From the NCBI GenBank assembly GCA_016783445.1, contig JADHWO010000004.1, forward strand, positions 11,212 to 75,211: a stretch of 64,000 bases of DNA, given 5' to 3'. The stretch's first letter is position 1; every line of letters begins with the position of its first letter. This document shows positions 2,877-64,000 of the stretch, one piece after another. Below the pieces are notes generated by a model, which ran no database searches, was not told the DNA's origin, and saw nothing but the letters and a program-made list of their open reading frames with translations. This stretch comes from Candidatus Aminicenantes bacterium (lineage in GTDB: Bacteria; Acidobacteriota; Aminicenantia; Aminicenantales; Aminicenantaceae). A program made the position numbers and the translations under genes.

Positions 2877-3443
2877 TTGAGAACTTTTATCGCTATCAAC
2901 CTCAGTCAGGAGATAAAAAAAACACTCTCCCACCTTATCGATGAACTTGACATGCTTGATAAAGGGAAGAAAAAAATAAGATGGATAAAACAAGAAGGCA
3001 AACATTTAACTCTTAAATTTTTGGGGGAAATCAGCCAGGAAAAAGCACTTGAAATTAAAAATGTTCTGGAAAGGATTTCAGAAAAATTCAAACCTTTTAT
3101 TCTTAAAATCAAAGGGACCGGCCGCTTCCCTCCAGGAGGAAAAAATCCAAGGGTGCTCTGGGTCGGGATCGAAGAAGAGAAAACCCTGTTTGCACTCCAA
3201 TCTCAATTGGAAGGAGAGATGGAAAAATTGGGCTTTCCAAGAGAACAGCGGAAATTTCGTCCTCATCTCACGCTTGGCAGAGTCAAAACTTTCTCCAGTC
3301 TCAGAGAAACGCTTCTTCTTATTGATAAATACAGGGAAAGAAATCTTGGAGAAATGGATGTGGAAAAAATCACTTTTATCCAGAGTGTTCTCAAACCAAC
3401 AGGAGCAGAATATTCTGTAATTTCTGAGGTCGAACTTAAATGA
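2877..3443 (+). CDS. thpR: RNA 2',3'-cyclic phosphodiesterase (2H phosphoesterase, LigT/ThpR)
   Basis: 188 aa with two H-x-T-L motifs (HLTLKF, HLTLGR); TTG start preceded by AAGAGG. Confidence 0.7.
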   Translation: MRTFIAINLSQEIKKTLSHLIDELDMLDKGKKKIRWIKQEGKHLTLKFLGEISQEKALEIKNVLERISEKFKPFILKIKGTGRFPPGGKNPRVLWVGIEEEKTLFALQSQLEGEMEKLGFPREQRKFRPHLTLGRVKTFSSLRETLLLIDKYRERNLGEMDVEKITFIQSVLKPTGAEYSVISEVELK

Positions 3444-4030: not shown

Positions 4031-5055
4031 AAGCAAGTGTAATTGGTGGAGGCTCTTGGGGAAGCGCTTTTGCACTTCATCTTGGCAAGCTTGATATAAA
4101 AACCCGGCTCTGGATAAGAGAAAAGGATGTTTATGAAGAAACGCTTCAGTTTAAGGAAAACAGAGCTTTTCTGCCCGGATTTGTCTTCCCTCCAACAGTT
4201 ACTTTTTTCCACAACATGGAAGAAGCCGTGGCATCTTCAGATGTCGTTTTTATTGCTGTTCCTTCTAAATTCTGCCGGCAGATTTATGAGAAGCTCGCCG
4301 CCCATCTTTCCTCCAATCATAAAATCGTCAGCCTTACAAAAGGAATTGAAGAAGGTTCTCTAAAAAGAATGAGCGAGGTCATGGAAGAAGTTTTTTCTCC
4401 TTTTTTTACCCCACATATTGCTGTGCTTTCTGGTCCAAGCTTTGCCAAGGAAGTTGTAGAAAACCATCCCACTGCAGTGGTTTTAGCCTCAAAAGAGGAA
4501 GACCTGGCTAAAAAAGCACAACATCTTATCTCATCTCCTACTTTCCGCACTTACACATCAGATGATATAGCTGGGGTAGAACTTGCAGGATCTATAAAAA
4601 ACGTCATCGCAATAGCAGCCGGAATTTCAGATGCCTTTTTATTCGGCAGTAATTCTGTTGCAGCTTTAGTAACAAGAGGGATTGCTGAAATGACAAGATT
4701 AGGGTTAAAATTAGGAGCCAAGATGGAAACTTTTGCCGGATTAGCAGGTATCGGTGACCTTGTGCTCACCTGCACAGGGAAATTAAGCCGTAACCGTTAT
4801 ATCGGTTTAGAAATGGGGAGAGGAAAAAATCTCCCTGAAATAGTCTCCGCCATTAAAATGGTAGCCGAAGGAGTAACCACGACTCTTTCTGTCCACCAAC
4901 TGGCAGAAAGGGAAAAAGTGGAGATGCCTATCTGCGAACAAATATATCAGGTGCTTTATAAAAATAAAGATCCCAGGACTGCTCTTCAAAACCTGATGGC
5001 AAGAAAATTAAAAAGTGAATATACAGCACAACAGGAGGAAATAAATGAGACCTAA
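4027..5055 (+). CDS. gpsA: NAD(P)H-dependent glycerol-3-phosphate dehydrogenase
   Basis: 342 aa; N-terminal VIGGGSWGSAFA Rossmann motif and overall GpsA architecture. Adjacent to plsY as in many bacteria. Confidence 0.9.
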   Translation: MKASVIGGGSWGSAFALHLGKLDIKTRLWIREKDVYEETLQFKENRAFLPGFVFPPTVTFFHNMEEAVASSDVVFIAVPSKFCRQIYEKLAAHLSSNHKIVSLTKGIEEGSLKRMSEVMEEVFSPFFTPHIAVLSGPSFAKEVVENHPTAVVLASKEEDLAKKAQHLISSPTFRTYTSDDIAGVELAGSIKNVIAIAAGISDAFLFGSNSVAALVTRGIAEMTRLGLKLGAKMETFAGLAGIGDLVLTCTGKLSRNRYIGLEMGRGKNLPEIVSAIKMVAEGVTTTLSVHQLAEREKVEMPICEQIYQVLYKNKDPRTALQNLMARKLKSEYTAQQEEINET

Positions 5056-5821
5056 ATTAACCATTATTTTTTTCATCTGTCTGAATATGCTTCTTTGTGC
5101 TTCACCTCAGAAAAAAATTGAAAAAGCGAGGGAGAAAGATCCTCTCCACCAGTGCAACATGGGTTTATTCCATCTGAACGAAGGAAATATCGATGAAGCC
5201 ATTAAATATCTAAATAAAGCTCTCTCGCTTAATCCCCGCTACGATCTCGCTTTAAATGCCCTTGGCTTGGCCCATTCTATGAAAGGAAATTTTGCAGAAT
5301 CTGAGAAGAATTTCCAGAAATGTCTACAAGTTAATCCTTCAATGACTGAAGCTCATAACTATCTTGGAACTGTTTACCAGGAGATGGGATTCATTGATAA
5401 AGCTGAAAGAGAATTCAGAATTGCCGCCTTAGATAGAAACTATAAATCAAGGGAGCTCCCTTATTACAATCTGGCAAGATTATACATTCTGAAGGAAAAG
5501 CTCACGGAAGCCCTCGAGTATGTCAATAGGTCACTCGAAATAAATGACAGTTTCCGTATGGCTTATAACCTCAAGGGAATCATTTTAGAAAGACAATTAA
5601 AATTTGATGAGGCGGTTGAATGCTATAAGGAAGCCCTTAAAAATCTTGAGGTTGGCATTAATCCTAAAGTTTATGTTGATATTAGCTTTAATCTCGGAGT
5701 GGTATATTTTAAAAACAATGAGTTTAAAGAGGCAAAGAAAATTTTTGAAAAGATCTCTTCCTATGTCACAGACCTTGATATGAAGGAAAAGATAGACAAG
5801 TATTTAAAAATGATCAAATAA
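5045..5821 (+). CDS. TPR-repeat protein with N-terminal signal peptide, probable lipoprotein
   Basis: 258 aa; hydrophobic N-terminus ending in Cys (LLCAS), multiple 34-aa TPR-like repeats (ALxLNPxY...); start overlaps gpsA stop. Confidence 0.6.
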   Translation: MRPKLTIIFFICLNMLLCASPQKKIEKAREKDPLHQCNMGLFHLNEGNIDEAIKYLNKALSLNPRYDLALNALGLAHSMKGNFAESEKNFQKCLQVNPSMTEAHNYLGTVYQEMGFIDKAEREFRIAALDRNYKSRELPYYNLARLYILKEKLTEALEYVNRSLEINDSFRMAYNLKGIILERQLKFDEAVECYKEALKNLEVGINPKVYVDISFNLGVVYFKNNEFKEAKKIFEKISSYVTDLDMKEKIDKYLKMIK

Positions 5822-7134: not shown

Positions 7135-8301
7135 TTAGAGTCCGGCATCCTTCCTCAGTGCTTCGTCTATATCAAGTCTTTCCCAGGTAAATTCTTTCTC
7201 TGCGCGGCCAAAGTGCCCGAAACAGGCTGTCTCTTTGTAGATGGGACGAAGCAAATTTAATGTCTGGATCATCTCCTTCGGAGAAAGATTAAAATGTTCC
7301 CTTATCATTTTTTTTATTCTATCCTCTGATATTTTTGATGTCCCGAAAGAATCCACCATTATTGAGACTGGATGAGGCACTCCGATAGCATAGGCGATCT
7401 GAACCTCTAATTTATCTGCAATACCGGCTGCAACTAAATTCTTTGCAACATAACGAGCCATATATGAACCTGAGCGGTCCACCTTAGAGGGATCCTTTCC
7501 GGAAAAACACCCTCCTCCATGGCTGCCGACACCTCCGTAAGTATCCACAATTATTTTCCGCCCTGTAACGCCTGAATCTGCAAAAGGCCCACCCCGTTCA
7601 AACCGGCCTGTTTCATTAATATAGACCTTAGTATTTTTATCGTACATTTCAGGCGGGATGATCTCTTTAATAACAATATCCTTGATGTCCTCCCTCAAAT
7701 CGCTCATCTTAACTTCATTGTTATGCTGGGCAGCAATCACAATGGCATCTACTCTTCGGGGTTTATGTCCTTCATATTCAACAGTGACCTGAGATTTCCC
7801 ATCCGGCCTGAGATAATTTAATGTTTTTTCCTTCCGAACCTGGCTCAGCCGCCTCACGAGCTTATGAGCAAGCATAATAGGTATCGGCATGAGTTCCTCT
7901 GTTTCTCTGCACGCATAGCCAAACATCAGGCCCTGGTCTCCAGCTCCTTGTTCACGATCTCCAGTTTCATTAACGCCTATAGCAATGTCAGGAGACTGCT
8001 CATGGATGGAAGAGACAACACAACATGTTTTATAATCAAATCCGTATTCGGCATTCGTGTATCCGATTTGCTTAACTGTGTCTCTGACAACTTTCTGGAA
8101 CTCGCAATAGCCTTCACTAGTTATTTCTCCTGCGATAAGAACAAGTCCAGTGGTTACTAATGTTTCGCAAGCTACTCGACTGTTGGAATCCTGTTTGATA
8201 AGATCGTCAAGTATAGCGTCAGAGACCTGATCACAAATCTTATCCGGATGTCCCTCTGTCACAGATTCAGAAGTAAAAAAATATTTTCCCTCTTTACTCA
8301 T
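7135..8301 (-). CDS. metK: S-adenosylmethionine synthetase
   Basis: 388 aa; N-terminal [24 protein letters not shown] and [16 protein letters not shown] MetK signatures; forms a methyl-cycle pair with ahcY. Confidence 0.95.
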
Positions 8302-8388
8302 ATCTCACCTCATCTGAATTATAGGATGGCAAAATTGCGTAGCAGAAAAATTAACATAAAAAGAACTCATTTTCAATGAAAAAAAGAC

Positions 8389-8926
8389 GGTTCTCTTCTA
8401 TTTTGTGCGGGCAAAACATGTCTTGATAGATTAATAGAAAGTGTTCGGGGATGGATGAAGCGACCTTTGAAGATTTAGCCTCTCTGAATCGCGCTTCGAG
8501 GAAACCCGACAGAGTCGGGCGGCGAGTATGTATAAGCTCAGACCAGTGGATTCAGAAAACACGCAACTTTTGCCCCAGCAATACAAACATTTAAATTTTG
8601 CGAAGGCCAGCAGGTAAAAAAAACCGTTTGAAGGCAAAGCGGGCATGGTTCACAAAATTGGGGACAGTCCCTATAAATACAAAAGGGACAGTCCCCATTT
8701 TGTGAGAGCGAAGCCTGAAACCGAGCAGCTTTTGACTCGCTGGGGCAAAAGTTGCGTGTTTTTGAACCTGCTGACCTGAGCTCTCCTTCAAACGGTTTTT
8801 TCCACCCACTGCCCTTCGCTTATGCGTTGAATAGACTGATGAAGGGATAGCGTGAAAAATCTGAACGGGAGCGAGACCATTCACAAATACTTACTGATTA
8901 ATACCCACACAAAATGGAAGAGAACC
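8389..8926. mobile_element. MITE-like non-coding foldback element, copy 1 (538 bp); 23-bp terminal inverted repeats GGTTCTCTTC(T/C)ATTTTGTG(C/T)GGG; flanked by 8-bp direct duplication AAAAAGAC
   Basis: 5' end ggttctcttctattttgtgcggg at 8389 and 3' end cccacacaaaatggaagagaacc ending at 8926 are reverse complements. aaaaagac is present immediately outside both ends. The interior is a long palindrome (cagaaaacacgcaacttttgcccc / ggggcaaaagttgcgtgtttttg) with no credible ORF. Two more copies in the window. Confidence 0.8.
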
Positions 8927-9073
8927 AAAAAGACTTAGACTACTTTTATTCAACAGGAGGGATCAACGCGCTACTTTCGTAAGAATATTATTTTCTATTT
9001 CCTTTTTACTTTTTTTCTCAATTTGAATTTGTATTTCAATTTATGTTATTTTTAAACCGCTTAAACTTGAGCC

Positions 9074-23305: not shown

Positions 23306-23360
23306 CTCATTCCTCCCTAATCTTCTTTCTCTACATAATTTAGGCATATTGGGGAAAAGA

Positions 23361-23405
23361 GTTGTCAAAGAGATGTTAAAAGTTTGTTAAAAGTTTGTTA
23401 AAAAA
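23361..23405 (-). promoter_or_regulatory. Promoter-operator motif A: four direct half-sites (TTAACAAAC / TTAACAAAC / TTAACATCT / TTGACAACT) at 11-bp phasing; the last is a -35-like TTGACA
   Basis: Minus-strand reading TTTTTAACAAACTTTTAACAAACTTTTAACATCTCTTTGACAAC. Near-identical copies at 25776-25820 and 30358-30401, each just upstream of a minus-strand transcription unit. Confidence 0.6.
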
Positions 23406-23416
23406 GCAGAAATATC

Positions 23417-25667: not shown

Positions 25668-25775
25668 TTTTTATCCTAGTGACCGAAGTTTTGTAAAATG
25701 GAGACTGTCTCCATTTTTCGCAATTTTTTAATTTATTTATCCTCTTTCTATAATGTAACTCTCCCCTGAGATAAA

Positions 25776-25820
25776 GTTGTCAAAGAGATGTTAAGAGTTT
25801 GTTAAAAGTTTGTTAAAAAA
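25776..25820 (-). promoter_or_regulatory. Promoter-operator motif B (same 4 x 11-bp direct-repeat array ending in TTGACA)
   Basis: Minus strand TTTTTAACAAACTTTTAACAAACTCTTAACATCTCTTTGACAAC, about 110 nt upstream of the SDR start codon. Confidence 0.6.
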
Positions 25821-25842
25821 GGCAGGGAAATAAAAAAATGTA

Positions 25843-25889
25843 GGAAAAAGGGGGCAGGCTACTTTTTTTTAAAAAAGTAGCCTATCCCC
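25843..25889 (-). terminator. Rho-independent terminator closing the five-gene unit
   Basis: gggggcaggctac-(AT loop)-gtagcctatcccc hairpin with T-runs on both strands, immediately downstream of the stop of 25906..26334. Confidence 0.55.
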
Positions 25890-30285: not shown

Positions 30286-30357
30286 TATGCCTCCTGGAGT
30301 TTATTAATCTTCAATTTCTCCATTTCTATAAATAATCTAACTTCCCCTGGATCTAAA

Positions 30358-30401
30358 GTTGTCAAAAAGATGTTAAGAGTTTGTTAAAAGTTTGTTAAAA
30401 A
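30358..30401 (-). promoter_or_regulatory. Promoter-operator motif C (same direct-repeat array), upstream of the UbiA-led unit and directly downstream of the response-regulator gene
   Basis: Minus strand TTTTTAACAAACTTTTAACAAACTCTTAACATCTTTTTGACAAC. Confidence 0.6.
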
Positions 30402-30584
30402 TGGAAAATTTGTAGGAAAATTAGAGAAAGACAGATATAGCCTTTAATTCTTTTATTGATACAATTAATGAAGAAAATGAGTACATACCCAAATTTGCAG
30501 AGATAGGTCACAATATTTTATTGGGTCTGCCCCCATTTTAATTAACAGGAATAAAACAGGAAGGCTGGAAAAGTGTAAGATTTG

Positions 30585-34440: not shown

Positions 34441-34783
34441 TTGTCCTCTCCACGATGAGTTTTTTTGGATTTCTTGTCCTTTTTGTTTTTCATATCTCTG
34501 TATTTTTTTTGTCTATTTTCTCTTCTATTTAAAAACTACCACAAAATATTATTTTATGTCAACATTTCAAATTTTTTTTAAATTCTCTATTTTAAAAAAT
34601 GCTTAATTTAACTCAATCCCTGGCATTTCTACTCTCTAAGCTTATAATTCATCCCATATAATAAATTAAAGAGTTGATTTGCCTTAACCATCTCTCTTTT
34701 TATAGATATCAAATGGAAGCAGATCACTTTAATTTCTTGCATATATTTGAATCTGCTTAATCTGACAAAATAAAAAAGAAGTC

Positions 34784-35286
34784 GGTTCTCTTCCATTTTG
34801 TGCGGGTAAAACATGTCTTGATAGATCAAAAGTAAGTATTCTGGGATGGATGAAGCGACCTTTGAAGATTTAGCCTCCCTGAATCGCTTTTCGAGGAGGC
34901 CCGACAGAGTCGGGCGGCGAGTATGTTTGAACTCAGGCCACTGGATTCAGAAAACACGCAACTTTTGCCCCAGCTATTCAAATATTTAAATTTTGCGAAG
35001 GCCAGCAGGTAAAAAAAACCGTTTGAAGGCAAAGCGGGCATGGTTCCTCTCCTTGAGGGAGAGGAGAGCGAAGCCTGAAACCGAGCAGCTTTTGCCTCGC
35101 TGGGGCAAAAGCTGCGTGTTTTTGAACCTGCTGACCTGAGCTTTCCTTCAAACGGTTTTTTTCACCCACTGCCCTTCGTTTATGCGTTGAATAGACTGAT
35201 GAAGGGATGGCGTGAAAAATCTGAATGGAAGCGAGACCATTCACGAATACTTACCTATTATTACCCACACAAAATAGAAGAGAACC
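34784..35286. mobile_element. MITE-like foldback element, copy 2 (503 bp) with 23-bp TIRs and 8-bp target duplication AAGAAGTC
   Basis: ggttctcttccattttgtgcggg ... cccacacaaaatagaagagaacc; aagaagtc on both flanks; about 90% identical to copy 1 outside a short variable central hairpin tip. Confidence 0.8.
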
Positions 35287-35342
35287 AAGAAGTCAATGAT
35301 CAATGCAGGCTTTTTATTCGAGGATGAGGTTAAATGAAAAAA

Positions 35343-36443: not shown

Positions 36444-36576
36444 TTTATACTCCCTTAAGTTCTTGTTTCCATTAAATATAACCCTGAGTTAGATAATTGT
36501 CAACATCCGTCGTTTTTTATGACCTGTAGTTGGAATTTTCTGGGAAACATATTAATTCAAACACATAAACCGATAA

Positions 36577-36950
36577 ATCTCTTCCATTTTGTGTGGGTAA
36601 AACATGTCTTGATAAATATTCTGGGATGGATGAAGCGACCTTTGAAGATTTAGCCTCCCTGAATCGCTCTTCGAGGAAATCCGACAGAGTCGGGCGGCGA
36701 GTATGTTTAAGCTCAGGACAGTGGATTCAGAAAACACGCAACTTTTGCCCCAGCGAGTCAAAAGCTGCTCGGTTTCAGGCTTCGCTCCCCTCTCCATCCC
36801 GGAGAGGAACCATGCCCGCTCTGCCTTCAAACGGTTTTTTCCACCCACTGCCCTTCGCTTATGCGTTTAAAAAATTGATGAAGGGATGGCGTGAAAAATC
36901 TGAAGGGGAGCGAGACCATTCACGAATATTTTCTGATAATTACCTACGCT
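36577..36950. mobile_element. MITE-like element, copy 3 (about 374 bp), a single-pass degenerate version
   Basis: Left end tctcttccattttgtgtggg and shared internal blocks (cagaaaacacgcaacttttgcccc..., ccttcaaacggttttttccacccactgccc...). The central segment is in inverted orientation relative to copies 1 and 2; the 3' TIR is eroded and there is no clean duplication. Confidence 0.65.
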
Positions 36951-37064
36951 AAAAGGAAGAAAACTTATACGTTAAATTTTTTGGCTAGACTTTATATGAA
37001 ATCTTCCAATATACTTTAAATATATTTTAAAAATGGCCATTCAAGACTTATTTAAGGAGGCATT

Positions 37065-40000
37065 ATGAGAAAAACAACTTTATTAATTTTTTTATGCCTT
37101 GGTATAGTCACGTCAAATTTTGCTATCGATGATGCTCGGCTGCTGAGGTTCCCTGACATAAATAAAGACCTGATCGTTTTTGTCTATGCCGGAGACATCT
37201 GGTCTGTTCAAGCAGCAGGAGGAGCAGCAAAAAAACTCACGTCTCACGAAGGGATGGAGCTATTTCCTAAAATATCACCAGACAGCAGGTGGATAGCATT
37301 TTCTGCTGAATATTCAGGTTCCCGGCAGGTCTTTATCATGCCCATCACAGGTGGAATCCCAACACAGCTCACCTACTACAATGATGTAGGAATGATGCCG
37401 CCAAGAGGTGGTTTTGACTATCAGGTTCTTGACTGGACGCCTGACAGCCAGAAAATTCTGGTCAGGGCAAACAGGACTCCATACGGACAAAGAAGAGGAA
37501 AATATTTTCTTGTGAGTATTGATGGTGGATTTGAGACTCCCCTTCAGATACCAGAGGGAGGAGGAGGAACCTTTTCTTCGGACGGGAAAAAAATCACTTA
37601 CACTCCAATTGGCAGAGAATTCAGAACCTGGAAGAGATACCAGGGAGGAATGGCCCAGGATATATGGACTTATGATCTTGAAAAAGCCGTATCAAAAAGA
37701 TTGACGACATTCCCTGGAACCGACCAGCATCCCATGTGGTATAAGGATAAAATTTACTTTGTTTCGGATAGAGACTTAACCTTAAATATTTATTCTTATG
37801 ATCTGGCTACAGAAAAGATCGAAAAAATTACAGGTCACTCAGAATACGATGTTCTCTGGCCTTCGGGTGAAAACGGGCTTGTTGTTTATGAGAATGGAGG
37901 TTACATCTACAAATTAAATATCCATACAAACGAGAATCAAAGGATACAGGTCAACATCAATTATGACAGCCCTTATGTTATGCCCTATTTTAAAAATGTT
38001 AAGGAAAATATAACAAGCTTTGACATATCCCCTTCTGGAAAAAGAGCAGTATTCGAAACTAGAGGGGATATATTCACAGTTCCTGCAAAGGAAGGAATTA
38101 CATACAATCTGACTGACACTCAAGGAGTAAGGGAAATTTTCCCTGCATGGTCCCCTGACGGGCAATTTTTAACGTACTACTCGGATAAAACCGGTGAATA
38201 CGAGATTTACCTCATGGACAGGAGTAAGGATAATGCTGTCACTCAACTCACAGAAGGAAGCGAGATATGGCGGTATCCCCTTGTGTGGTCTCCTGACAAC
38301 TCAAAGGTTCTTTTCTCAGACAGGAATCAGGATTTACAGATCCTGGATATCAAAACTAAAAACATTACATATGTGGATAAAGCCCGCCGTTTTGATATCA
38401 CAGATTATGACTGGTCTCCTGATTCCAAGTGGGTAGTTTATACAAAATACAGTGATAACACTCAAGATGCGGTTTGGGCTTATTCCTTGGACAAGGGAAA
38501 AACCTTCCAGCTAACGAATGATATGTTCATAGATTTTTCCCCTGTCTTTTCAACTTGTGGAAAATACATATTTTTCCTCTCAGACAGGAGCTTCAACCTG
38601 AATTTTTCAAGCTTTGAATTCGATTATATTTTCAGGGAATCAACTAATATTTATGCTGTCCCCTTAACAGAAGCCGTGCCTCCTCTCTTTAAAGATAAAA
38701 ATGACCAGGAGGAGGTCAAAAAGGAAAAAGCAGAAAAAGAAACAAACTCCAAAAAAGAAGCGAAAAAAACATCCAAGACAGAGGAAGAAAAGGCACCTTC
38801 AGTCCGGATAAATTTTGAAGGAATAAACGAAAGGATCGTATCCTTCCCCTTAAAACCCGGGGACTACAGAAATCTTACTGCTGTAGAGGGTGGGGTTCTT
38901 TATGTCAAAGATGGCGAATTACACATGTTTAAGATCGAAGATAAGAAAGATTCAGTGATCATAAAGGGAATATCTGGTGGAGCACTTTCGGCAAATAGAA
39001 AAAAGATTCTTTACCGTGCCAGGCAAAAATATGGAATCATCGATTTAAAACCCGATCAGAAGGTTGGAGCCGGAGAGCTAAATCTTTCCGACTTAACAAT
39101 GAAGATAGAACCTCTAAAAGAATGGAAACAGCTTTTTAATGACGGATGGAGAATCTATAGAGACTGGTTCTACGTAAAAAATCTACATGGAGTTGACTGG
39201 CAGAAGATGAAAGTAAAATACGGCCAGCTGGTTCCTTACTTAAGTCACAGGGCTGACCTCGATTTTATTTTTGGAGAGCTTGTCGGAGAGCTGAATACCG
39301 GACACTGCTACATCAACTGGGGAGACTTTCCAAGAGTTAAAAGGGTTGAAGGAGGACTTTTAGGTGCCGAGCTTAAAGTTGACGAGAAATCCTTAAGATA
39401 CATCATCAGCAAAATTTACAAAGGAGAAAACTGGAACGAAAGAACAAGGTCTCCCTTAACCGAACAGGGAATCAATGTGAAGGAGGGCGATTACCTCATC
39501 AGTCTCAACGGCCAAAATATCACCACAAAAGACAATCCTTACAAATTTCTTGAAAACACAGTCGGAAAAAGGATACCTATCGTTGTGAATTCTAAGCCTG
39601 TTGAGAAAGGAGCAAGAGAGTTCCTGATAAAGCCAATCCAGAGCGAGCTGAACCTTTTTTACATGGATTGGGTGAATTCAAGAAGAGAAATGGTGGATAA
39701 ACTCTCAAAAGGGAAAATAGGCTACTTCCATGTTCCCAATACCTCTGTTGAGGGAAACAGGGAACTGTTTAAAGGCTTTTATGCTTTTAGAAACAAGGAT
39801 GCACTGATCATTGACGAAAGATATAACGGAGGCGGTTTTATTCCTGATGTCATGACAGAACTCCTGACAAGAAAAATCTTAAGTTACTGGGGAAGGAGAG
39901 GTTTGATTCCAAGCCAGACTCCAGGTGCAGCTCACGAGGGGCCAAAAGTCATGCTCATCAATCACTATTCTGCTTCTGGCGGCGACGCTTTCCCCTACTA

Positions 40001-40331
40001 CTTCAAAAAGAACAAACTGGGAACTCTTATCGGGACTAGAACCTGGGGAGGACTTGTCGGATTGTCAGGCAATCCGGCCCTGGCTGATGGAGGTTATACT
40101 GCAGTTCCTACATTTGGTTTTATAAACACAGAAGGAAATTGGGCAGTAGAAGGAGTTGGAGTCTATCCGGATATAGAAGTGTATGACCGGCCAGAGCTTG
40201 TGGCCAAAGGAGAAGATCCATGTATAAAAAAAGCTGTCGAAGTCCTTCTTGAAGAGCTTAAAAAGAATCCTCCGAAAAAAATAAAAAAGCCCGAAGATCC
40301 TGACCGCTCGAAGCGGATAAAGAAAAAGTAA
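37065..40331 (+). CDS. Tricorn protease homolog (beta-propeller domains plus PDZ plus S41 C-terminal peptidase), secreted
   Basis: 1088 aa; signal peptide; repeated WSPD propeller motifs; charged KE-rich linker; C-terminal region with tricorn/S41 hallmarks (HVPNTSVEGN, IDERYNGGG, SASGGDAF). Confidence 0.8.
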   Translation: MRKTTLLIFLCLGIVTSNFAIDDARLLRFPDINKDLIVFVYAGDIWSVQAAGGAAKKLTSHEGMELFPKISPDSRWIAFSAEYSGSRQVFIMPITGGIPTQLTYYNDVGMMPPRGGFDYQVLDWTPDSQKILVRANRTPYGQRRGKYFLVSIDGGFETPLQIPEGGGGTFSSDGKKITYTPIGREFRTWKRYQGGMAQDIWTYDLEKAVSKRLTTFPGTDQHPMWYKDKIYFVSDRDLTLNIYSYDLATEKIEKITGHSEYDVLWPSGENGLVVYENGGYIYKLNIHTNENQRIQVNINYDSPYVMPYFKNVKENITSFDISPSGKRAVFETRGDIFTVPAKEGITYNLTDTQGVREIFPAWSPDGQFLTYYSDKTGEYEIYLMDRSKDNAVTQLTEGSEIWRYPLVWSPDNSKVLFSDRNQDLQILDIKTKNITYVDKARRFDITDYDWSPDSKWVVYTKYSDNTQDAVWAYSLDKGKTFQLTNDMFIDFSPVFSTCGKYIFFLSDRSFNLNFSSFEFDYIFRESTNIYAVPLTEAVPPLFKDKNDQEEVKKEKAEKETNSKKEAKKTSKTEEEKAPSVRINFEGINERIVSFPLKPGDYRNLTAVEGGVLYVKDGELHMFKIEDKKDSVIIKGISGGALSANRKKILYRARQKYGIIDLKPDQKVGAGELNLSDLTMKIEPLKEWKQLFNDGWRIYRDWFYVKNLHGVDWQKMKVKYGQLVPYLSHRADLDFIFGELVGELNTGHCYINWGDFPRVKRVEGGLLGAELKVDEKSLRYIISKIYKGENWNERTRSPLTEQGINVKEGDYLISLNGQNITTKDNPYKFLENTVGKRIPIVVNSKPVEKGAREFLIKPIQSELNLFYMDWVNSRREMVDKLSKGKIGYFHVPNTSVEGNRELFKGFYAFRNKDALIIDERYNGGGFIPDVMTELLTRKILSYWGRRGLIPSQTPGAAHEGPKVMLINHYSASGGDAFPYYFKKNKLGTLIGTRTWGGLVGLSGNPALADGGYTAVPTFGFINTEGNWAVEGVGVYPDIEVYDRPELVAKGEDPCIKKAVEVLLEELKKNPPKKIKKPEDPDRSKRIKKK

Positions 40332-45064: not shown

Positions 45065-48000
45065 TTACCTGATTCTTATAGGGTAAGGAGGTCGCTTTAA
45101 TTTTATAGGTGGATTCTTCTTGAGCTCTTCCATAATAACTTCAATAGCCTTTTCCAGTTGAGGATCTCGTCCGGCAATCACATCAGCAGGCCACTGTTCA
45201 ACTTCAATATCCGGAGGAACTCCTACATTCTCAACGACCCAACCATTCTCTGTCCATATAGCCAGGTTTGGAGCAGAGACATAGCCGCCATCCATCAGGA
45301 TTGGAAATCCAAGGGTTCCTACCAGGCCGCCCCACGTTCTTTTTCCGATCAGTTTGCCAAGCTTGAATTTCCGGAACATCCAGGGAAGCAGATCACCTCC
45401 GGAACCGGCTGTCTCATCAATAAGCATAACCTTAGGACCTTGAATGGATGCACCTGGCGTTTTAAGATCAGCCCCATAACGCATGTGCCAGTAGCAGGTT
45501 AAAGGACGCCGCAAAATATCTATATAGTAGTCTGCAACTGAGCCGCCACCGTTAAACCTCTCATCAACAATGATGGCATCTTTGTTCACCTGGGGAAAGA
45601 AATACCGTTTGAAATAGGTGTGTCCCGTTGTTGTTGTATTTGGCACATAAACATAAGCCACCCGGCCATTTGTAGCCTTATCAACTTTTTTGAGGTTCCC
45701 CTCCACCCAGTCACGATTCCGTAGAGAGCTCTCGTCGCGAACAGGGACAACAAATACAGTACGTGAGCCTGCGCTGTTTGGATCCGGACCAACAGTTATT
45801 TCAATAAGTTTTCCCGCAGAATTTTCAAATAAACTGAAAATATTCTGCGGGGGGCGAAGTTCCTTCCCGCGTACAGCCAGGAGATATTCTCCCTTTTTAA
45901 CATCTACGCCTGGCTCAGTTAAGGGAGAACGAAGCTGGGGATTCCAGTTGAGACCGCCATAGACCTTTTTAAACCTGTAGCGGCCATTTTCTATAGAATA
46001 ATCGGCACCGAGCAAACCTCCGGGAACCTGTTTGGACAACGCAGGTGTGTCTCCACCTCCTACTCGATGGTGCCCTACAGCCAGTTCACTACACATCCAT
46101 TGAATCACCCGGTTGAGGTCTCCACGAGTTGCAACATGAGGAAGGAACACAGCGTATTTCTTTTGCATGGCCTCCCAGTCTGCACCGTGCATGTTTGTAG
46201 CATAGAAAAAATCGCGGTTAATTCGCCAGGCTTCATAAAAAATCTGTTGCCATTCAGCCCTTGGGTCTATACGTACTTCAATGGCATTAGTGTCGATCTT
46301 TCCCTGACCGGGCTTTATCTTTCCGGCTGCAGGTGCAATTCCCAGGGAATCACTGGAAATGTAGAGTATCTTTTTCTTATCGGCTGAAATTTCATACCCA
46401 TTAACTCCTGATAAAACAACTTCATCTTTACGTTTATTGAGGTCGTACATATGCAGCTTGGTTTCCCTTGCATAGGGTCCCCGGCTTCCCGAAGGTGCTT
46501 CAAGATAATAGAATTCTCCTGCCTTGCCGGCCTGAAGACTAAAATAGGCGCCAGCAGAAAGAGATAGAGCAAGTATTCGCTGATTGAGGCCATCAAAGTC
46601 TACAGAGAAAGCCTTTTCCGGCTTTGCTTTTTTCTTTTCAGGCTCTATCTTCTTTTCAGGTTTTTCTTTCTTTATCATCCCCTCTTCCTCGTCACTCTCC
46701 TTGGTAAGAGGTGATGGAACGTCCTTTTGCAGCACAGCAAGATAAATGGAACGTGTCATGCGCGTATCAGCATTTGACATGGCAAACCACTGTTTGACCG
46801 GCCCGGCATCAGTGGATGCAAAAAAGTAGAGATATTTACCGCTCTCATCAAAAGCAGGATCGCTGACATCACTCAGGCCATCTGTAACCACATAGGATTT
46901 ATCTTTTTCAAGAGAGTAGAGATAAACCTTCGAGATATAAGCTGCGGTATTCAGCGTGTAAACAATCCATTTGGAATCAGGGGACCAGGTAGACGTGATC
47001 GTCTTTGCACGTCTTGGCCCGAAGAGGTATTCAGACCCGATTTTCTTCGAGATCCCTGTTTTTAAATCTATCCAGTAGAGAGTCCAGGAGTTATCTGCAA
47101 AAGAAATTTTCTGGCTGTCTGGCGACCAGACCGGGGTGTCATAAAATCCAGTGCCTGTCAGCTTGAACTTTTTCACATCTCCCTTGCCGTCCTGGGTACT
47201 AACATGGAGCTCGTATTCACCAGACTCGTCTGAAAAGTAAGCAATGTTTTTTCCGTCAGGTGACCAGACTGGACTCCGTTCATGAGTGCCTGTTGTGTTT
47301 GTCAGGTTCCGGGGGTCTCCTTTTTCAGCCGGAACCGTGATTATCTCCCCACGAAATCCTAAAACAGCTCTTGCTCCGGAGGGAGAAATCGAAGCACCCC
47401 TTATATAACGGAATCCACTGACATAGCGGGGACGAACCTCAATCAAGTCGGCTGCTACACCAACAGTTAATTTCGTGCTCCGTGCATATGAGGGATTGAA
47501 GATGTGGAGATGCCCAGCCTGTTCGTAGATAATTTTCTCATTACCTGAAGAAGCACTAAGAACAGGAAAATCTTTATGGGAGGTGAGCTGCTTGATTTCT
47601 TTCGATTTTGTATCGAATGAAAAAATATTAAATTCTCCATTTCGATCTGAAAGAAAATATATCTTCTCCCCTATCCACATAGGATCAGTATCATTACAGC
47701 GGCCTTCAGGCTGAGGAATCTTTTCTACTGAGTAATCGCTAAAAGTGATAATCCAAATTGTGGAAACCGTTCCTCCTCGATAATTTTTCCACTGGCGAAA
47801 GCGTTCAGAGAGTGGAGTGTAAGCCATTTTACTGCCGTCAGGTGAGTATGTTGCCTTGTAAGCATTGGGAATTTTTAGGGATGTGGGAAGCCCGCCTTTA
47901 AGAGGCACAGTAAAAAGCTGCGTATACCGCCTTGTAAAAACATAACGGGGAGATATAAACAGCACTGAGGAGCCGTCCGGTGTAAAGCCGCGAACAATAT

Positions 48001-48346
48001 CATATCCCGGATGCCAGGTGAGCCGCCTCGGGACTCCACCATCAACAGGAACGACATAAACATCTGTGTTGCCATCATACTGGGCACTAAAAGCAATAAG
48101 TTTCCCGTCCAGTGAAAAAACAGGATTAGATTCTAAGCCTTGAGCTGTGGTCAAGCGCCGGACTCCTTTCCCATCAATATTAGCCACCCAGAGGTCTCCT
48201 GCATAACCAAAAGCTATATGGGTTTTGCTAATAGCGGGTTGACTTAAAAGTTTGGTATCGTTGATATTGATTTTACCAGCCAGGAAAACAGGCATGGCAA
48301 TTGTAAATACCAACACAAAAAAGATGAGATAAAAACTTCTTTTCAT
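45065..48346 (-). CDS. Second tricorn protease homolog (secreted), paralogous to 37065..40331
   Basis: 1093 aa; same architecture and motifs (WSPD repeats, KE-rich linker, YVPNTTTTGH, VDERFNGGG, TAGSGGDLLP), ends ...PYPIRIR. Confidence 0.8.
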   Translation of the reverse strand: MKRSFYLIFFVLVFTIAMPVFLAGKININDTKLLSQPAISKTHIAFGYAGDLWVANIDGKGVRRLTTAQGLESNPVFSLDGKLIAFSAQYDGNTDVYVVPVDGGVPRRLTWHPGYDIVRGFTPDGSSVLFISPRYVFTRRYTQLFTVPLKGGLPTSLKIPNAYKATYSPDGSKMAYTPLSERFRQWKNYRGGTVSTIWIITFSDYSVEKIPQPEGRCNDTDPMWIGEKIYFLSDRNGEFNIFSFDTKSKEIKQLTSHKDFPVLSASSGNEKIIYEQAGHLHIFNPSYARSTKLTVGVAADLIEVRPRYVSGFRYIRGASISPSGARAVLGFRGEIITVPAEKGDPRNLTNTTGTHERSPVWSPDGKNIAYFSDESGEYELHVSTQDGKGDVKKFKLTGTGFYDTPVWSPDSQKISFADNSWTLYWIDLKTGISKKIGSEYLFGPRRAKTITSTWSPDSKWIVYTLNTAAYISKVYLYSLEKDKSYVVTDGLSDVSDPAFDESGKYLYFFASTDAGPVKQWFAMSNADTRMTRSIYLAVLQKDVPSPLTKESDEEEGMIKKEKPEKKIEPEKKKAKPEKAFSVDFDGLNQRILALSLSAGAYFSLQAGKAGEFYYLEAPSGSRGPYARETKLHMYDLNKRKDEVVLSGVNGYEISADKKKILYISSDSLGIAPAAGKIKPGQGKIDTNAIEVRIDPRAEWQQIFYEAWRINRDFFYATNMHGADWEAMQKKYAVFLPHVATRGDLNRVIQWMCSELAVGHHRVGGGDTPALSKQVPGGLLGADYSIENGRYRFKKVYGGLNWNPQLRSPLTEPGVDVKKGEYLLAVRGKELRPPQNIFSLFENSAGKLIEITVGPDPNSAGSRTVFVVPVRDESSLRNRDWVEGNLKKVDKATNGRVAYVYVPNTTTTGHTYFKRYFFPQVNKDAIIVDERFNGGGSVADYYIDILRRPLTCYWHMRYGADLKTPGASIQGPKVMLIDETAGSGGDLLPWMFRKFKLGKLIGKRTWGGLVGTLGFPILMDGGYVSAPNLAIWTENGWVVENVGVPPDIEVEQWPADVIAGRDPQLEKAIEVIMEELKKNPPIKLKRPPYPIRIR

Positions 48347-57195: not shown

Positions 57196-57283
57196 ACAAA
57201 ATATGGGGCCTGCTCCCTTTTTCTGTCCCCTTTTTCTTTCATGAAAAAAGCGATACAAAATATGGGGCCTGCCCCCTTTTTTC
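57196..57283 (+). repeat. Two direct copies (28 bp each, 59 bp apart) of ACAAAATATGGGGCCTGC(T/C)CCCTTTTT(C/T), each a short GC hairpin plus T-run, in the leader of the threonine-dehydratase-like gene
   Basis: 57196-57223 and 57255-57283 are near-identical; each has GGGG(C)CTG(C)CCCC followed by five or more T. Confidence 0.6.
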
Positions 57284-57389
57284 TATTTTTTTTTCAAAAG
57301 GGCTTGATAAGAATTGCGAATCTTGTAATACTTTTCCTGGATGAAGCACGATAAACAATTCTAATCACAACCGGTAAAACTATAAACTA

Positions 57390-60558: not shown

Positions 60559-62373
60559 TTAATCCACAGTAAGTGTCTTGCTGATATTGCGGGGCTGGTC
60601 AGGATTTATACCTTTTTCCTGGCTTACATAATAGGCAAGTTGCTGGGCAACAACAACCGCAAGGAGAGGAACGATGAAGTAGTTCTGAGAAGGCAAAGGA
60701 ATGAGCTCATCTGAATTGATAGAAAGAGAATCCAAATAAGGTGCAATCGTGCAGATTTTTCCCCAGCGGCAGCTTACTTCATTAATATGGGAAAGCGTCA
60801 TATAGGAGTCCTCAAGAGTGGAGAGAAATAAGACCCAATCGCCCTTCTTTATAATTGCTAGGGGACCATGTTTGAACTCAGAAGAATACATCCCTTCACA
60901 GGGAATATAAGTAATCTCCTTCATTTTTAAAGCTGCTTCCAAACATGCACTATAGCTTACTCCATAACCAAGATAATAGAGATAGTTTTTCTTTGCTAAA
61001 AAGCGGGCAATCTGCCTGCACTTCTCCACAGTCTGGGATAATGTCTTTTTAATGAGAGAAGGAAGGTTTCCAAACTCATCCTCCAGGGCGGTATTTTTCC
61101 CGTCTTTAATCTCCCCCAATTTCATCGATAAATACAGAAAGACAATCACTTGATTTGTGAATGTTTTTGTAGCGGGCACACTGATTTCAATATTAGAGAG
61201 AAGAGGCAAACAATTTTTAATCCTGAGCTGGAGTGAGGAACCAAGAACATTCACTAAAGCAAAAATTTTCTTCGCTTTTTTCTCTTCTAAAAAATTCAAA
61301 ACACTTACAACATCTTTAGTCTCTCCACTTTGAGAAACAAGGATGTAAGCCCCCTGGGAAAGGTCTCCATGGCCTAAAAACTCTTTAAACGCACCGGCAA
61401 TAACAGGGACTGCTTCGATGCCAGCGATTTTATTCAGATAATATGCACCGAGAACACAGGCATTATAAGACGAGCCAGAACCAACAAGATAAATCTTTCT
61501 CTCTCGCTTCAATCCACTATAGAATTCACCCACCTGACCAGAGTCTTTTAAGAAATTGATCAAGGCTTGGGCTTTTTCTGGCTGTTCATAAATCTCCTTG
61601 AGCATAAAATGAGGAAATTTTCCCTTTTGTGCATCTTCAATATTCAGAGTACATTGATAAGGGCTCCTCTTGATCTCCTCTCCTGAAGAGAGTTTTCTGA
61701 TCTGATATGTATCCCAACTGTATTCAACGTACTCGTCGTCATAAATCGAAACGATGGAATCCGTGAATTGAATAATCGACGGCAGATCAGAAGAGCAGCA
61801 GATAAAATCCCTGCCAATTCCAAGATAAAGAGAGGAATATTTCTTGACACAATACATCTTATGGGACTCTTTCCGGGTTGCTACATAGGCATAATCGCCC
61901 TTAAGAATTGTATCTGCTTCCTGGATAGCTGCGTTCATGTCTTTGCTTTGCTTGAATCCCTCCTCAATGACATGGACAATAACTTCACCGTCATTTTCGC
62001 CCTGGAAAACATGGCTTTTTTCCCCGTATTCCTTAATGAGCTCTTTTGTGTTGACAATATTTCCGTTGTGAGCACCTACCATTTCCTTTAAACAATCATA
62101 GTGGGGCTGTGAATTCTCCTTAGAAGGGGGACCAAAAGTTGCCCACCGAAGCTGCACTATTCCTTTGTACCCTTTAAGTTTTTCAAAATTATATTTTTTA
62201 TTGACATCTTCAATTCCCCCAACATCCTTTTTCAACTCAATAGAATCGCTACTGAAAGCCGCCATTCCAACAGAATCATAGCCCCTGTAGGTGAGCTTTC
62301 TTCCAGCTTGAAGAAGAATCTTTCCTAAATCTTCCTTAAAATCCTTAAAAATAATTCCAAATATTCCGCACAT
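60559..62373 (-). CDS. glmS: Glutamine--fructose-6-phosphate aminotransferase (isomerizing)
   Basis: 604 aa; N-terminal MCGIFGI class-II glutaminase nucleophile; two SIS domains (…GSGSSYNA…, …GYGVSYSAC…). Confidence 0.8.
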   Translation of the reverse strand: MCGIFGIIFKDFKEDLGKILLQAGRKLTYRGYDSVGMAAFSSDSIELKKDVGGIEDVNKKYNFEKLKGYKGIVQLRWATFGPPSKENSQPHYDCLKEMVGAHNGNIVNTKELIKEYGEKSHVFQGENDGEVIVHVIEEGFKQSKDMNAAIQEADTILKGDYAYVATRKESHKMYCVKKYSSLYLGIGRDFICCSSDLPSIIQFTDSIVSIYDDEYVEYSWDTYQIRKLSSGEEIKRSPYQCTLNIEDAQKGKFPHFMLKEIYEQPEKAQALINFLKDSGQVGEFYSGLKRERKIYLVGSGSSYNACVLGAYYLNKIAGIEAVPVIAGAFKEFLGHGDLSQGAYILVSQSGETKDVVSVLNFLEEKKAKKIFALVNVLGSSLQLRIKNCLPLLSNIEISVPATKTFTNQVIVFLYLSMKLGEIKDGKNTALEDEFGNLPSLIKKTLSQTVEKCRQIARFLAKKNYLYYLGYGVSYSACLEAALKMKEITYIPCEGMYSSEFKHGPLAIIKKGDWVLFLSTLEDSYMTLSHINEVSCRWGKICTIAPYLDSLSINSDELIPLPSQNYFIVPLLAVVVAQQLAYYVSQEKGINPDQPRNISKTLTVD

Positions 62374-62390
62374 TCTTTTAGAAGCTCACT

Positions 62391-63563
62391 TTATGATTTA
62401 TAAAATGCACTGATGGAAGTAACGACGTAATCTTGCTGCTCCGAAGTTAATTCCGGATAGACAGGTATAGCAAGAACTTCATGAGTCGCTTTTTCCGCAA
62501 CAGGAAAATCTCCTTCCTTGTACCCGAGATAAGAAAAGCATTTCTGAAGATGGAGCGGCAAAGGATAATAAACAGCTGTCCCCACGCCCTTTCCTTTCAA
62601 GAATTCCAACAATTTGTCTCTTTCTTTTGCTCTTAAAACATATTGATGGTAAATATGATAATTCTTAACACCACTATCCTTATACAAAGGCTCTGGAATC
62701 TGAATTTTTCCTTCTTCCACCAATCCTGATTCCTGGAATATCTTGTTGTAATACAAAGCTTTTTCTCTCCTCTTCTGATGCCATGTTTCTAAATATTTGA
62801 GCTTGACTCTGAGGATTGAAGCCTGGAGCGCATCAAGCCGGAAATTACCGCCAAGAATATCATAGAAATATTTATTTCTCGATCCGTGTCCTCTCAACAA
62901 CTTCAGTTTCTGCGCCAATTCTTCCTCGTCAGTGAGAACCATACCCCCATCTCCAAACCCTCCTAGATTTTTCGAAGGGAAAAAGGACAAGATCCCAAGG
63001 TTCCCTAATGTACATGCTTTCTTTATGCCTTCAGGAGTTGGATATTCCGCCCCGACAGCCTGAGCTGAATCTTCAACCACGAACAAATCATATTTTTTTG
63101 CACAATCCATAATTGGAGTCATATCAACACACTGCCCATAAAGATGAACAGGTATCACCGCTTTAATTGCTGAAATCCCCTCTTTCCTGAGCTGAGATTC
63201 AAGAACTCCTTCTAGCTTGGCTGGGTCAATGTTAAAGCTTTTCTTTTCAATATCGCAAAAAACAGGCTTTGCTTTAAGTCTGGCTATTGCACCTACAGTT
63301 GCAAAAAATGTAAATGGGGTTGTAACCACAGCATCCCCTTCTCCCACACCAAGAGCCATTAAAGAGATAATCAGAGCATCAGATCCGGAAGAAACTCCTA
63401 CAGCAAATTCTGCCCCACTGTATGCAGCCATTTCTTTTTCAAACTCCTCAACCTCTGGCCCTAAAATAAACCTCTGCGATGAGACAACTTCTAAAATTTT
63501 CTGATCGATTTCTTCCTGTATACTCAGGTATTGAGCTCTTAAATCTAAAAGTGGAATATTCAT
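62391..63563 (-). CDS. DegT/DnrJ/EryC1/StrS-family sugar aminotransferase
   Basis: Start at MNIPLLDL (AGGTGAAAGGAAAG upstream); DegT-family motifs and Lys-containing active-site region; typical of amino-sugar / O-antigen loci. Confidence 0.8.
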   Translation of the reverse strand: MNIPLLDLRAQYLSIQEEIDQKILEVVSSQRFILGPEVEEFEKEMAAYSGAEFAVGVSSGSDALIISLMALGVGEGDAVVTTPFTFFATVGAIARLKAKPVFCDIEKKSFNIDPAKLEGVLESQLRKEGISAIKAVIPVHLYGQCVDMTPIMDCAKKYDLFVVEDSAQAVGAEYPTPEGIKKACTLGNLGILSFFPSKNLGGFGDGGMVLTDEEELAQKLKLLRGHGSRNKYFYDILGGNFRLDALQASILRVKLKYLETWHQKRREKALYYNKIFQESGLVEEGKIQIPEPLYKDSGVKNYHIYHQYVLRAKERDKLLEFLKGKGVGTAVYYPLPLHLQKCFSYLGYKEGDFPVAEKATHEVLAIPVYPELTSEQQDYVVTSISAFYKS

Positions 63564-63635
63564 ATCTTTCCTTTCACCTTTTAATTTTAAATGAGCACTG
63601 TATTTAAATATAATAAAATTGTCAACACACAACTC

Positions 63636-64000
63636 TTATTTATAAACCTTCTTTAATTTTTCCTTCTCGATTATTAATTGGCCTTGATAAGTTACATAAT
63701 TCAGTAAAATAAGAACTCTTTCCTTTGCAGTGAGTTCTTTCTTAAATATTCCCCTTAATCCCTTCAATGGCCCTTTCACAACTTCAATCTCATCTCCAAC
63801 CTCAGGCTCCTCCCCGTATTTATCAATCTCAATGAGACCGTTTACTTCTCTGGATTTAATCTCAAGGATAATATCTTCCAGAATTGGCGTAGGAAGGATC
63901 TTGCTTCCGACCACTCTTTTTACCCCTCTTGTGTATCTCACAAGCTGGTATTGGGCTGGAAAATCAAAGTAGATGAATTCATAGCCTGGGAAGAAAGGTC
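63636..64000 (-). CDS. NusG/UpxY-family transcription antiterminator (KOW domain present; NGN domain continues past the window end)
   Basis: Minus-strand frame is open to position 64000 (...PFFPGYEFIYFD...). Listed ORF starts at an internal GTG. KOW-like GDEIEVVKGPLKGLRGIFKK; the FPGY motif is typical of the NusG N-domain. Confidence 0.6.
   Translation of the reverse strand, partial: PFFPGYEFIYFDFPAQYQLVRYTRGVKRVVGSKILPTPILEDIILEIKSREVNGLIEIDKYGEEPEVGDEIEVVKGPLKGLRGIFKKELTAKERVLILLNYVTYQGQLIIEKEKLKKVYK

Follow-up and report, generated by a model that had tools for sequence, protein, structure and literature searches.

A dispersed module with a strand-specific fold carried as cargo by ISL3-type MITEs of Candidatus Aminicenantes

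The stretch of DNA considered here, 64,000 nucleotides from Candidatus Aminicenantes bacterium (assembly GCA_016783445.1, contig JADHWO010000004.1, positions 11,212 to 75,211; hereafter the window), contains three related repeats that are non-autonomous MITEs (miniature inverted-repeat transposable elements) of the ISL3 family. At the center of each lies a structured module, here called M, and it is M that is the unexpected part, scattered as it is through the genomes of Aminicenantes from sediments; the MITE shell is ordinary. The explanation that accounts best for the observations, and one that we consider probable, is that an ISL3 MITE carries M as cargo, that M has been selected to fold on one of its two strands, probably as RNA, and that M has been mobile by a route of its own.

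The MITE shell and its partner insertion sequence

A first-pass annotation of the window had recognized the three copies and placed them correctly, apart from the bounds of the third: copy 1 at 8389..8926 (+ strand, 538 bp), copy 2 at 34784..35286 (+ strand, 503 bp) and copy 3, with its bounds corrected, at 36575..36965 (+ strand, about 391 bp). Copies 1 and 2 begin with GGTTCTCTTC(T/C)ATTTTGTGCGGG and close with its complement. Their terminal repeats, 23 bp in length, lie at 8389-8411 (reading GGTTCTCTTCTATTTTGTGCGGG) and 8904-8926 in copy 1 and at 34784-34806 and 35264-35286 in copy 2. These had been called perfect inverted repeats; they are present as described, but within each copy the two ends are complementary at only 21 of the 23 positions. 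Each of the two copies stands between exact 8-bp duplications, which differ in sequence from one copy to the other, as had been noted: AAAAAGAC, read from the sequence at 8381-8388 on the left and 8927-8934 on the right of copy 1, and AAGAAGTC at 34776-34783 and 35287-35294 for copy 2. Over their arms, copies 1 and 2 have 92-94% identity, and both still look competent to transpose. Copy 3 is an old, decayed copy, its left repeat having three mismatches relative to the 19-nt core of the terminal repeat, its right repeat degenerate, and its flanks (AAACCGAT versus TATACGTT) showing no 8-bp duplication. In the window as a whole the 19-nt core is matched 5 times, compared with 0.09 expected by chance. 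The earlier conclusion that the interior has no credible open reading frame (ORF) stands: the longest encode 97 amino acids in copy 1 and 119 in copy 3, and none is common to the copies. Folded as RNA, copy 1 has a predicted energy of -215.5 kcal/mol (z = -11.4); for copy 3, z = -4.1.

Exact copies of the 23-bp repeat are present in over 104 loci from metagenome-assembled genomes (MAGs) among the matches listed; these counts, and those of M copies given later, are lower bounds. Their records carry the labels Aminicenantes, Auribacterota, PVC and 'Eubacteriales'. Pairs of repeats enclose elements of 84-561 bp and, in a single case, a 1329-bp insertion sequence (IS), which lies at 159-1487 of L086 (L-numbers are labels of the compared MAG and metagenome loci) and has the duplication GATAAATC. 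Both 23-bp repeats of this IS match GGTTCTCTTCCATTTTGTGTGGG with no mismatches, and the sequence that it has in common with the ends of the MITEs extends over 25-31 bp. Its single ORF has the domains DDE_Tnp_ISL3 (1.6e-71), HTH_Tnp_ISL3 and Zn_ribbon_ISL3. In these DDE, helix-turn-helix and zinc-ribbon domains and in its 8-bp duplication, the IS resembles ISAtc1, ISTfe1 and other members of the ISL3 family, but its transposase is just 41-44% identical (approximately) to the closest annotated plasmid-borne ISL3 transposases. The MAG holding it has 77-78% nucleotide identity to window positions 60561-63998. The ISL3 origin that the first-pass annotation had offered as speculation is thereby confirmed, with the matching autonomous IS found in a related MAG. 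The other origin that it had offered, IS256, is not supported: the transposases found adjoining these repeats (L086 and L048) are all of the ISL3 type. Within the 64-kb window itself, a tblastn search with the ISL3 transposase found none.

Duplications are by no means confined to the two copies in the window. Among 60 elements bounded by the repeats, 8-bp duplications are perfect in 29 and have one mismatch in 9, as against 0.56 for shuffled pairings, and the duplicated target sites are 84% A+T. The copies in the window lie within multiple unrelated flanks, and related MAGs and metagenomes contain dozens more. As a whole the MITE forms a long foldback, the arms of which keep their complementarity, with compensatory changes that show no strand bias. 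A base MITE lacking the central part is represented by L030 (266 bp), and the base shell is also found with cargo other than M.

MITEs of this type have been described: a 187-nt MITE of Microcystis aeruginosa is mobilized by ISL3 and has 8-nt direct repeats (PMC11448079). Like the elements considered here, it is short and non-coding, has terminal repeats matching those of an ISL3 element and 8-nt direct repeats, and forms a stem-loop foldback. Since such MITEs are already in the literature, the shell is ordinary, and the novelty claimed for it in the first-pass annotation holds at the level of a new family member but not beyond; alone, it would amount to one further ISL3 MITE family. The differences are nonetheless clear. 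The terminal repeat begins GGTTCTCTTCC... rather than GGCTCTTCG..., the host is of another phylum (Aminicenantes), the elements reach 561 bp, and they have a central cargo slot containing an unrelated, independently dispersed structured module.

Several smaller observations concern the shell. The ISL3 transposase of L048 (163-1125, from a MAG labelled Syntrophotalea), the second found adjoining the 23-bp repeat, is 40% identical to that of L086, hence conservation of the repeat far exceeds that of the enzyme. A GC-rich MAG contains much shorter MITEs, of 84-162 bp, that have these terminal repeats and 8-bp duplications (L010, at 3041-3202 and 4938-5099; L047, at 7445-7528). Two of them bracket a gene resembling those for outer-membrane efflux proteins, giving a 2-kb unit similar to a composite transposon, the two flanks of which are unrelated. 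In the base MITE, the left arm contains a small hairpin (in the window, CCCGACAGAGTCGGG at 8505-8522), the stem of which varies among relatives by compensatory change (CCGGCGTAGCCGG, GCCGATGAAATCGGC, GTCGACAGAGTCGAC).

The central module: architecture, fold and distribution

In its simple form, the element has a single M of about 155 nt at the center of the foldback. This is the case in L021, L077, more than 10 metagenome contigs and copy 3, where a complete M occupies 36705..36862 with its functional strand on the minus strand (167 bits, E = 5e-46, according to R1, the model for M used to score the modules of the window). L085, from the same MAG as L030, has M at a different position in the base MITE, so that two positions are known.

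Copies 1 and 2 are composites. On the + strand, the left arm is followed by 44 nt belonging to a resident M and by an AT-rich spacer of 20 nt (8580-8599 in copy 1); then come a complete M, oppositely oriented, 35 nt more from the resident M, and the right arm. The inner M is of a different P1 subtype from the resident (P1, P2 and P3 are the stems of the fold presented below). The inner M of copy 1, at 8596..8787 with its functional strand on the + strand, matches R1 over its full length (145.3 bits, E = 8e-40). The truncated outer M surrounding it lies on the minus strand, its 3' part (the A arm) at 8531..8587, comprising a remnant of the P3 3' strand and the P1 3' arm, and its 5' part (the B' arm) at 8785..8823, comprising the P1 5' arm through CCGUUUGAAGG, with a partial R1 match at 8702-8823 (-). 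In copy 2, the inner M lies at 34991..35147, again with its functional strand on the + strand (R1 170.7 bits, E = 4e-47), and the shell of the outer M extends over 34925..35183 on the minus strand (R1 52.8 bits, E = 3e-13), its P1 arms and P3 3' half surrounding the inverted inner M, with a 131-nt insert in place of the interior of the model. Relative to copy 2, copy 3 has its core in inverted orientation (128 nt, 91% complementary). Since copies 1 and 2 contain the same composite between different duplications, the composite transposed as a unit after it had formed. Similar nested centers are found in other metagenome contigs (L122, L165, L168).

The interior had been described as a nested palindrome with a hypervariable tip. 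The first description does not hold, as the internal repeats of copy 1 are interleaved in the order A (8556-8587), B (8600-8634), A' (8731-8762), B' (8785-8819). The second is right about the lengths, 56 bp in copy 1, with two GGGACAGTCCC palindromes, and 21 bp in copy 2, but the tip is really the apical hairpin of M: the inner M of copy 1 has a 42-nt extra insert in the hairpin at the tip of P2, with the palindromes at 8661-8671 and 8685-8695.

These palindromes belong to a lineage-specific family of GC-rich palindromes set between runs of A and T (GGGGACAGTCCCC, GGGGCAGGCCCC, GGGGACGTTCCCC), which is found in the window at 8661-8695, 25832-25869 and 57257-57294 and in L136 at about 1500-1800. 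In copy 1, the insert at the tip of M is made up of two units of the family, and a cluster of them fills the ortholog, in L136, of the site occupied by copy 3. They resemble bidirectional terminators or else REP-like units (REP, repetitive extragenic palindromic sequence).

The fold of M was assessed from an alignment of 74 distinct copies, collected from metagenome contigs by means of a 24-nt probe that lies inside P3 (CTTTTGCCCCAGCGAGNCAAAAGC). The consensus has 45 pairs in a three-way junction, made of a long closing stem (P1), a hairpin with a variable tip (P2) and a second hairpin (P3) with the conserved loop CUCGCUGGGG. Paired cells make up 97.0%, compared with 88.2% in shuffles and 37-54% when the partners are slid. 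Nearly half of the pairs (22/45) have changed on both sides, accounting for 332 cells versus 98 in shuffles, and the covariation score is 0.306 versus 0.135, with 0 of 500 shuffles reaching 0.306. The covariation is carried by P1, the base of P3 and the tip of P2. The unpaired sequences of the junction and loops are highly conserved, even in L013, a diverged M from a GC-rich Aminicenantes MAG in which the fold is kept (84 bits).

The fold is also specific to one strand. The consensus fold has an energy of -52 kcal/mol for one strand as against -20 for the opposite one, and cells with G·U exceed those with A·C by 393 to 30 (by 132 to 30 on a strand-unbiased set of pairs, taken from both strands and limited to those that are mostly Watson-Crick). 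At four positions G·U is the dominant pair (73/74, 74/74, 68/74 and 46/74). The same analysis applied to the arms of the base MITE gives 64 to 48. By these counts, the shell behaves as a symmetric DNA palindrome, while the cargo is constrained on one strand. Mobile element and structured non-coding RNA, which the first-pass annotation had posed as mutually exclusive, are therefore not so: the shell behaves as mobile DNA, and the cargo shows strand-specific covariation. It is the strand bias that distinguishes the cargo from the DNA foldback carrying it, and the comparison of G·U with A·C counts between shell and cargo may be reused as a test to separate DNA palindromes from strand-specific structures. 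In short, M is an abundant, unannotated element whose covariation signal is unusually clean.

M is an element independent of the MITE. Matches to the probe are found in more than 120 metagenome contigs, and there is no ISL3 repeat within 600 bp of 105 out of 123 copies. When flanks were compared by BLAST, 51 of the 93 copies with full flanks lay outside any similarity to the base MITE, and about half of the copies were placed in a base-MITE context; on inspection, a few of the 51 apparently solo copies proved to be within diverged variants of the MITE. Clean solo copies are found in L146 (959-1115), L148 (7356-7512) and L230 (637-792). Among MAG loci selected for carrying the ISL3 repeat, 666 kb in all, there are only 4 copies of M, one of them the diverged copy of L013. 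The module is intergenic, and the four possible arrangements of flanking-gene orientation are about equally common.

No protein recurs next to M, no transposase-like ORF recurs among 1323 ORFs in about 1.4 Mb of loci, and units bounded by P1 are 100-300 nt in length, none of them longer and none long enough to encode a protein. M was not found in viral contigs, and no plasmid matched the MITE of copy 3 together with its M. A search of Rfam gave no match at gathering score in the whole window and, for the region of copy 3 out to E ≤ 10, one match at the level of chance (E = 5). No paper was found in the literature on M or on an RNA motif of Aminicenantes.

When one M lies within another, the inner is almost always inverted (24 cases versus 1 direct). 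The junctions recur, one after ...CCGU(A/U)UGGAAGG of the outer copy, directly behind GGAAGG, and the other before (GC)UGGGGCAAAAGC in its P3 loop, and at each there is short homology to the ends of M. Where the outer and inner M of composites differ in P1 subtype, the composites occur in different flanks and so have spread as units. Derivatives rearranged through the palindromic P3 also exist (e.g., L186). The longest direct repeats between the flanks of solo copies are distributed as expected by chance, except for three of 7-10 bp at inconsistent offsets, and no conserved target motif or flanking tetranucleotide was seen beside the ends of M. The possibilities of TG...CA ends or of a TA target were rejected on inspection.

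Related genomes contain different M-bearing elements in orthologous intergenic regions, namely between pyrR and ribF (L172, 2260-2700; L185, 4140-4620; L205, 7900-8400) and upstream of gap (L186, 3240-3370, versus L196, 7830-8070). The types found at these sites are a truncated type-1 MITE, a truncated type-2 MITE and a bare composite M. This suggests either hot spots for insertion or turnover, with one element replacing another.

How M may act and move

The elements probably came about as follows. An ISL3 DDE transposase encoded elsewhere would recognize the terminal inverted repeats of about 23 bp and insert the MITE at AT-rich sites, an 8-bp staggered cut giving rise to the 8-bp duplications. 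The MITE is a DNA foldback with a central slot for cargo, filled by M in this subfamily. In the element ancestral to copies 1 and 2, the resident M probably took in a second M, of the other P1 subtype and in inverted orientation, which replaced P2 and the 5' half of P3 in the resident. Transposition of this composite as a unit would then have produced the interleaved repeats and the supposed hypervariable tip. M itself would be under selection to fold on one strand, appearing as RNA through read-through transcription, and would be mobile on its own, now or formerly, by a route that leaves no long duplication.

That M acts as RNA rather than as single-stranded DNA (ssDNA) is something we infer, as are its function and its route of movement. 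Constraint at the level of RNA seems the likeliest reading of the alignment, somewhat favored because G·U pairs are dominant at some positions and because the three-way fold has conserved junctions. MITE-like repeats of the ERIC and Correia types offer a parallel, in that they are intergenic, lie in either orientation and form long RNA hairpins when transcribed together with their neighbors. They are, however, simple hairpins with TA duplications, while M is branched, has no consistent duplication and nests into itself, inverted, at a fixed site.

A number of observations weigh against the proposed account. M shows no orientation bias relative to the flanking genes, so read-through would yield the folding strand only about half the time, and no conserved promoter or terminator was found for M. 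The invariance of P3 is in part an effect of collection, since the alignment was seeded with a probe internal to P3. G·T wobble pairs are tolerated in ssDNA as well, so RNA and ssDNA are inseparable by these data. As for the shell, the partner transposase comes from a related MAG, with none in the 64-kb window. No clean empty site turned up for any of the three copies: in exact-protein look-ups with MetK and the XRE/M78 regulator, all the contigs were either filled or broken at the repeat, and the ortholog of the copy 3 site in the syntenic relative L136, which has no MITE, is too diverged for the junction to be mapped. L189, a candidate for an empty site, was dropped, its M lying elsewhere on the contig. 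The repeats do explain breaks in Aminicenantes assemblies at these sites.

It had also been suggested that the repeats supply promoters or terminators. Simple consensus scans lend this no support: between 8250 and 9100 they found 0 promoter-like and 2 weak terminator-like sites, not above the number in shuffles. Hexamers resembling a -10 box upstream of the inner M in composites are inconsistent.

A more ambitious proposal, which we put forward only tentatively and would not bet on, is that M represents an undescribed class of small mobile element in Aminicenantes: an RNA or single-stranded intermediate of about 155 nt with a three-way junction, selected for its folding on one strand, which would spread without leaving a long duplication, travel as a passenger in ISL3 MITEs, home preferentially into the antisense strand of the P2-P3 region of other Ms and so build inverted 'Russian-doll' composites that propagate as units.

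Next after constraint on RNA comes the idea that M is a non-autonomous ssDNA transposon, of the REPIN or the miniature IS200/IS605 type, moved by a single-copy HUH tyrosine transposase encoded elsewhere that would recognize the top strand in its folded form, so that the constraint on the fold would operate on ssDNA. This is unlikely, but several observations favor it: the fold of M is specific to one strand and maintained by compensatory changes, M has no consistent duplication, it is intergenic in random orientation, and no gene is linked to it. REPINs, which are REP doublets that form hairpins and are mobilized by RAYT transposases (PMC3116915), are the closest precedent for compensatory hairpins without an adjacent transposase, their own being single-copy and encoded elsewhere (PMC3116915). 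Like M, they are short intergenic repeats, form a long single-strand hairpin, leave no duplication and enter into higher-order arrangements. The resemblance fails in the details. The ends of M vary and its three-way-junction interior is conserved, the opposite of REPINs, and neither a REP-like motif at the ends of M nor a RAYT gene in the loci was seen. Absence of a duplication would also fit the IS200/IS605 type, but not the absence of a 4-5-nt target at the left end (no conserved target of this size adjoins either end of M), nor the pairing of the ends of M with each other rather than as separate subterminal hairpins. Moreover, four positions with dominant G·U are more typical of functional RNA, and insertion into the same template strand predicts direct nesting, yet 24 of 25 cases are inverted.

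One might instead suppose that there is nothing but a foldback MITE, and that the covariation of M arises from correction of quasi-palindromes at the level of DNA, by template switching from one hairpin arm to the other, together with ancestry common to subfamilies. The whole MITE is after all a long foldback, its arms are complementary with compensatory changes and no strand bias, and rearrangements through the P3 palindrome do occur, as in L186. But DNA-level correction is symmetric between strands and alone cannot account for the strand bias of M (132 to 30, compared with 64 to 48 in the MITE arms). Neither does it fit with the high conservation of unpaired junctions and loops, L013 included, or with the wide occurrence of M outside any foldback MITE. 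We regard this explanation as improbable.

Slightly less credible again is the notion that M serves, as a stand-alone RNA, to guide or scaffold a trans-encoded nuclease or recombinase, in the manner of the omega RNA of TnpB or IscB or the bridge RNA of IS110. Such a role would suit an element that is mobile and yet constrained as RNA, and targeting would explain why M nests into its own P3 loop: nearly invariable inversion, with the site fixed within or beside that invariant loop, is what would be expected if the loop of one M paired with the antisense strand of another. However, no gene for a nuclease or recombinase lies beside any of the approximately 120 copies of M, the P1-bounded units of 100-300 nt are too short to encode a protein, and there is no match in Rfam to families of the omega-RNA type.

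Finally, the scenario in which the repeats are a family of structured non-coding RNA genes rather than mobile DNA, for all that the central module covaries strongly, is very hard to credit in view of the different perfect 8-bp duplications at two copies and at 29 of 60 relatives, terminal repeats identical to those of an ISL3 IS, and the existence of the shell without M (L030) and with unrelated cargo.

The significance of M depends on which of these readings is correct. If M is an RNA, it would constitute a new multi-copy family of structured RNA in an uncultured phylum. If it moves as ssDNA, it would be a new kind of hairpin transposon, one whose nesting is self-targeted.

Genomic setting and other features of the window

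All three copies are intergenic, as first annotated, and their neighbors are housekeeping genes. Copy 1 lies between a divergently transcribed pair, metK and a gene for a peptidase of family M16; the MetK protein is identical to MBL7082285.1 (Candidatus Aminicenantes bacterium). The window falls within contig NODE_531 (ENA, ERZ24794671). Copy 2 is 3' of the XRE/M78 gene and 5' of a 197-amino-acid ORF, and copy 3 is between the divergent genes for the XRE/M78 regulator and the tricorn protease. Pfam confirms the XRE and peptidase M78 regulator as well as two tricorn proteases. The latter are paralogs of 1088 and 1093 amino acids (37065-40331 and 45065-48346), encoded on opposite strands about 5 kb apart.

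Elsewhere in the window there are three direct repeats of 80 nt (23328-23407, 25743-25822 and 30325-30404), 76-85% identical, each just 5' of where a minus-strand gene or operon begins. Read on that strand (TTTTTAACAAACTTTTAACAAACTCTTAACATCTCTTTGACAAC), they include a tandem TTAACAAAC motif and TTGACA, and on this basis they may represent a shared promoter and operator.

Lastly, positions 2429-5845 of L030 and 60561-63998 of the window have 77-78% nucleotide identity over 3.4 kb, although the MAG containing L030 is recorded as 'uncultured Eubacteriales bacterium'. Since the window carries a protein identified with Aminicenantes, the taxonomic labels of several such MAG records are probably wrong.

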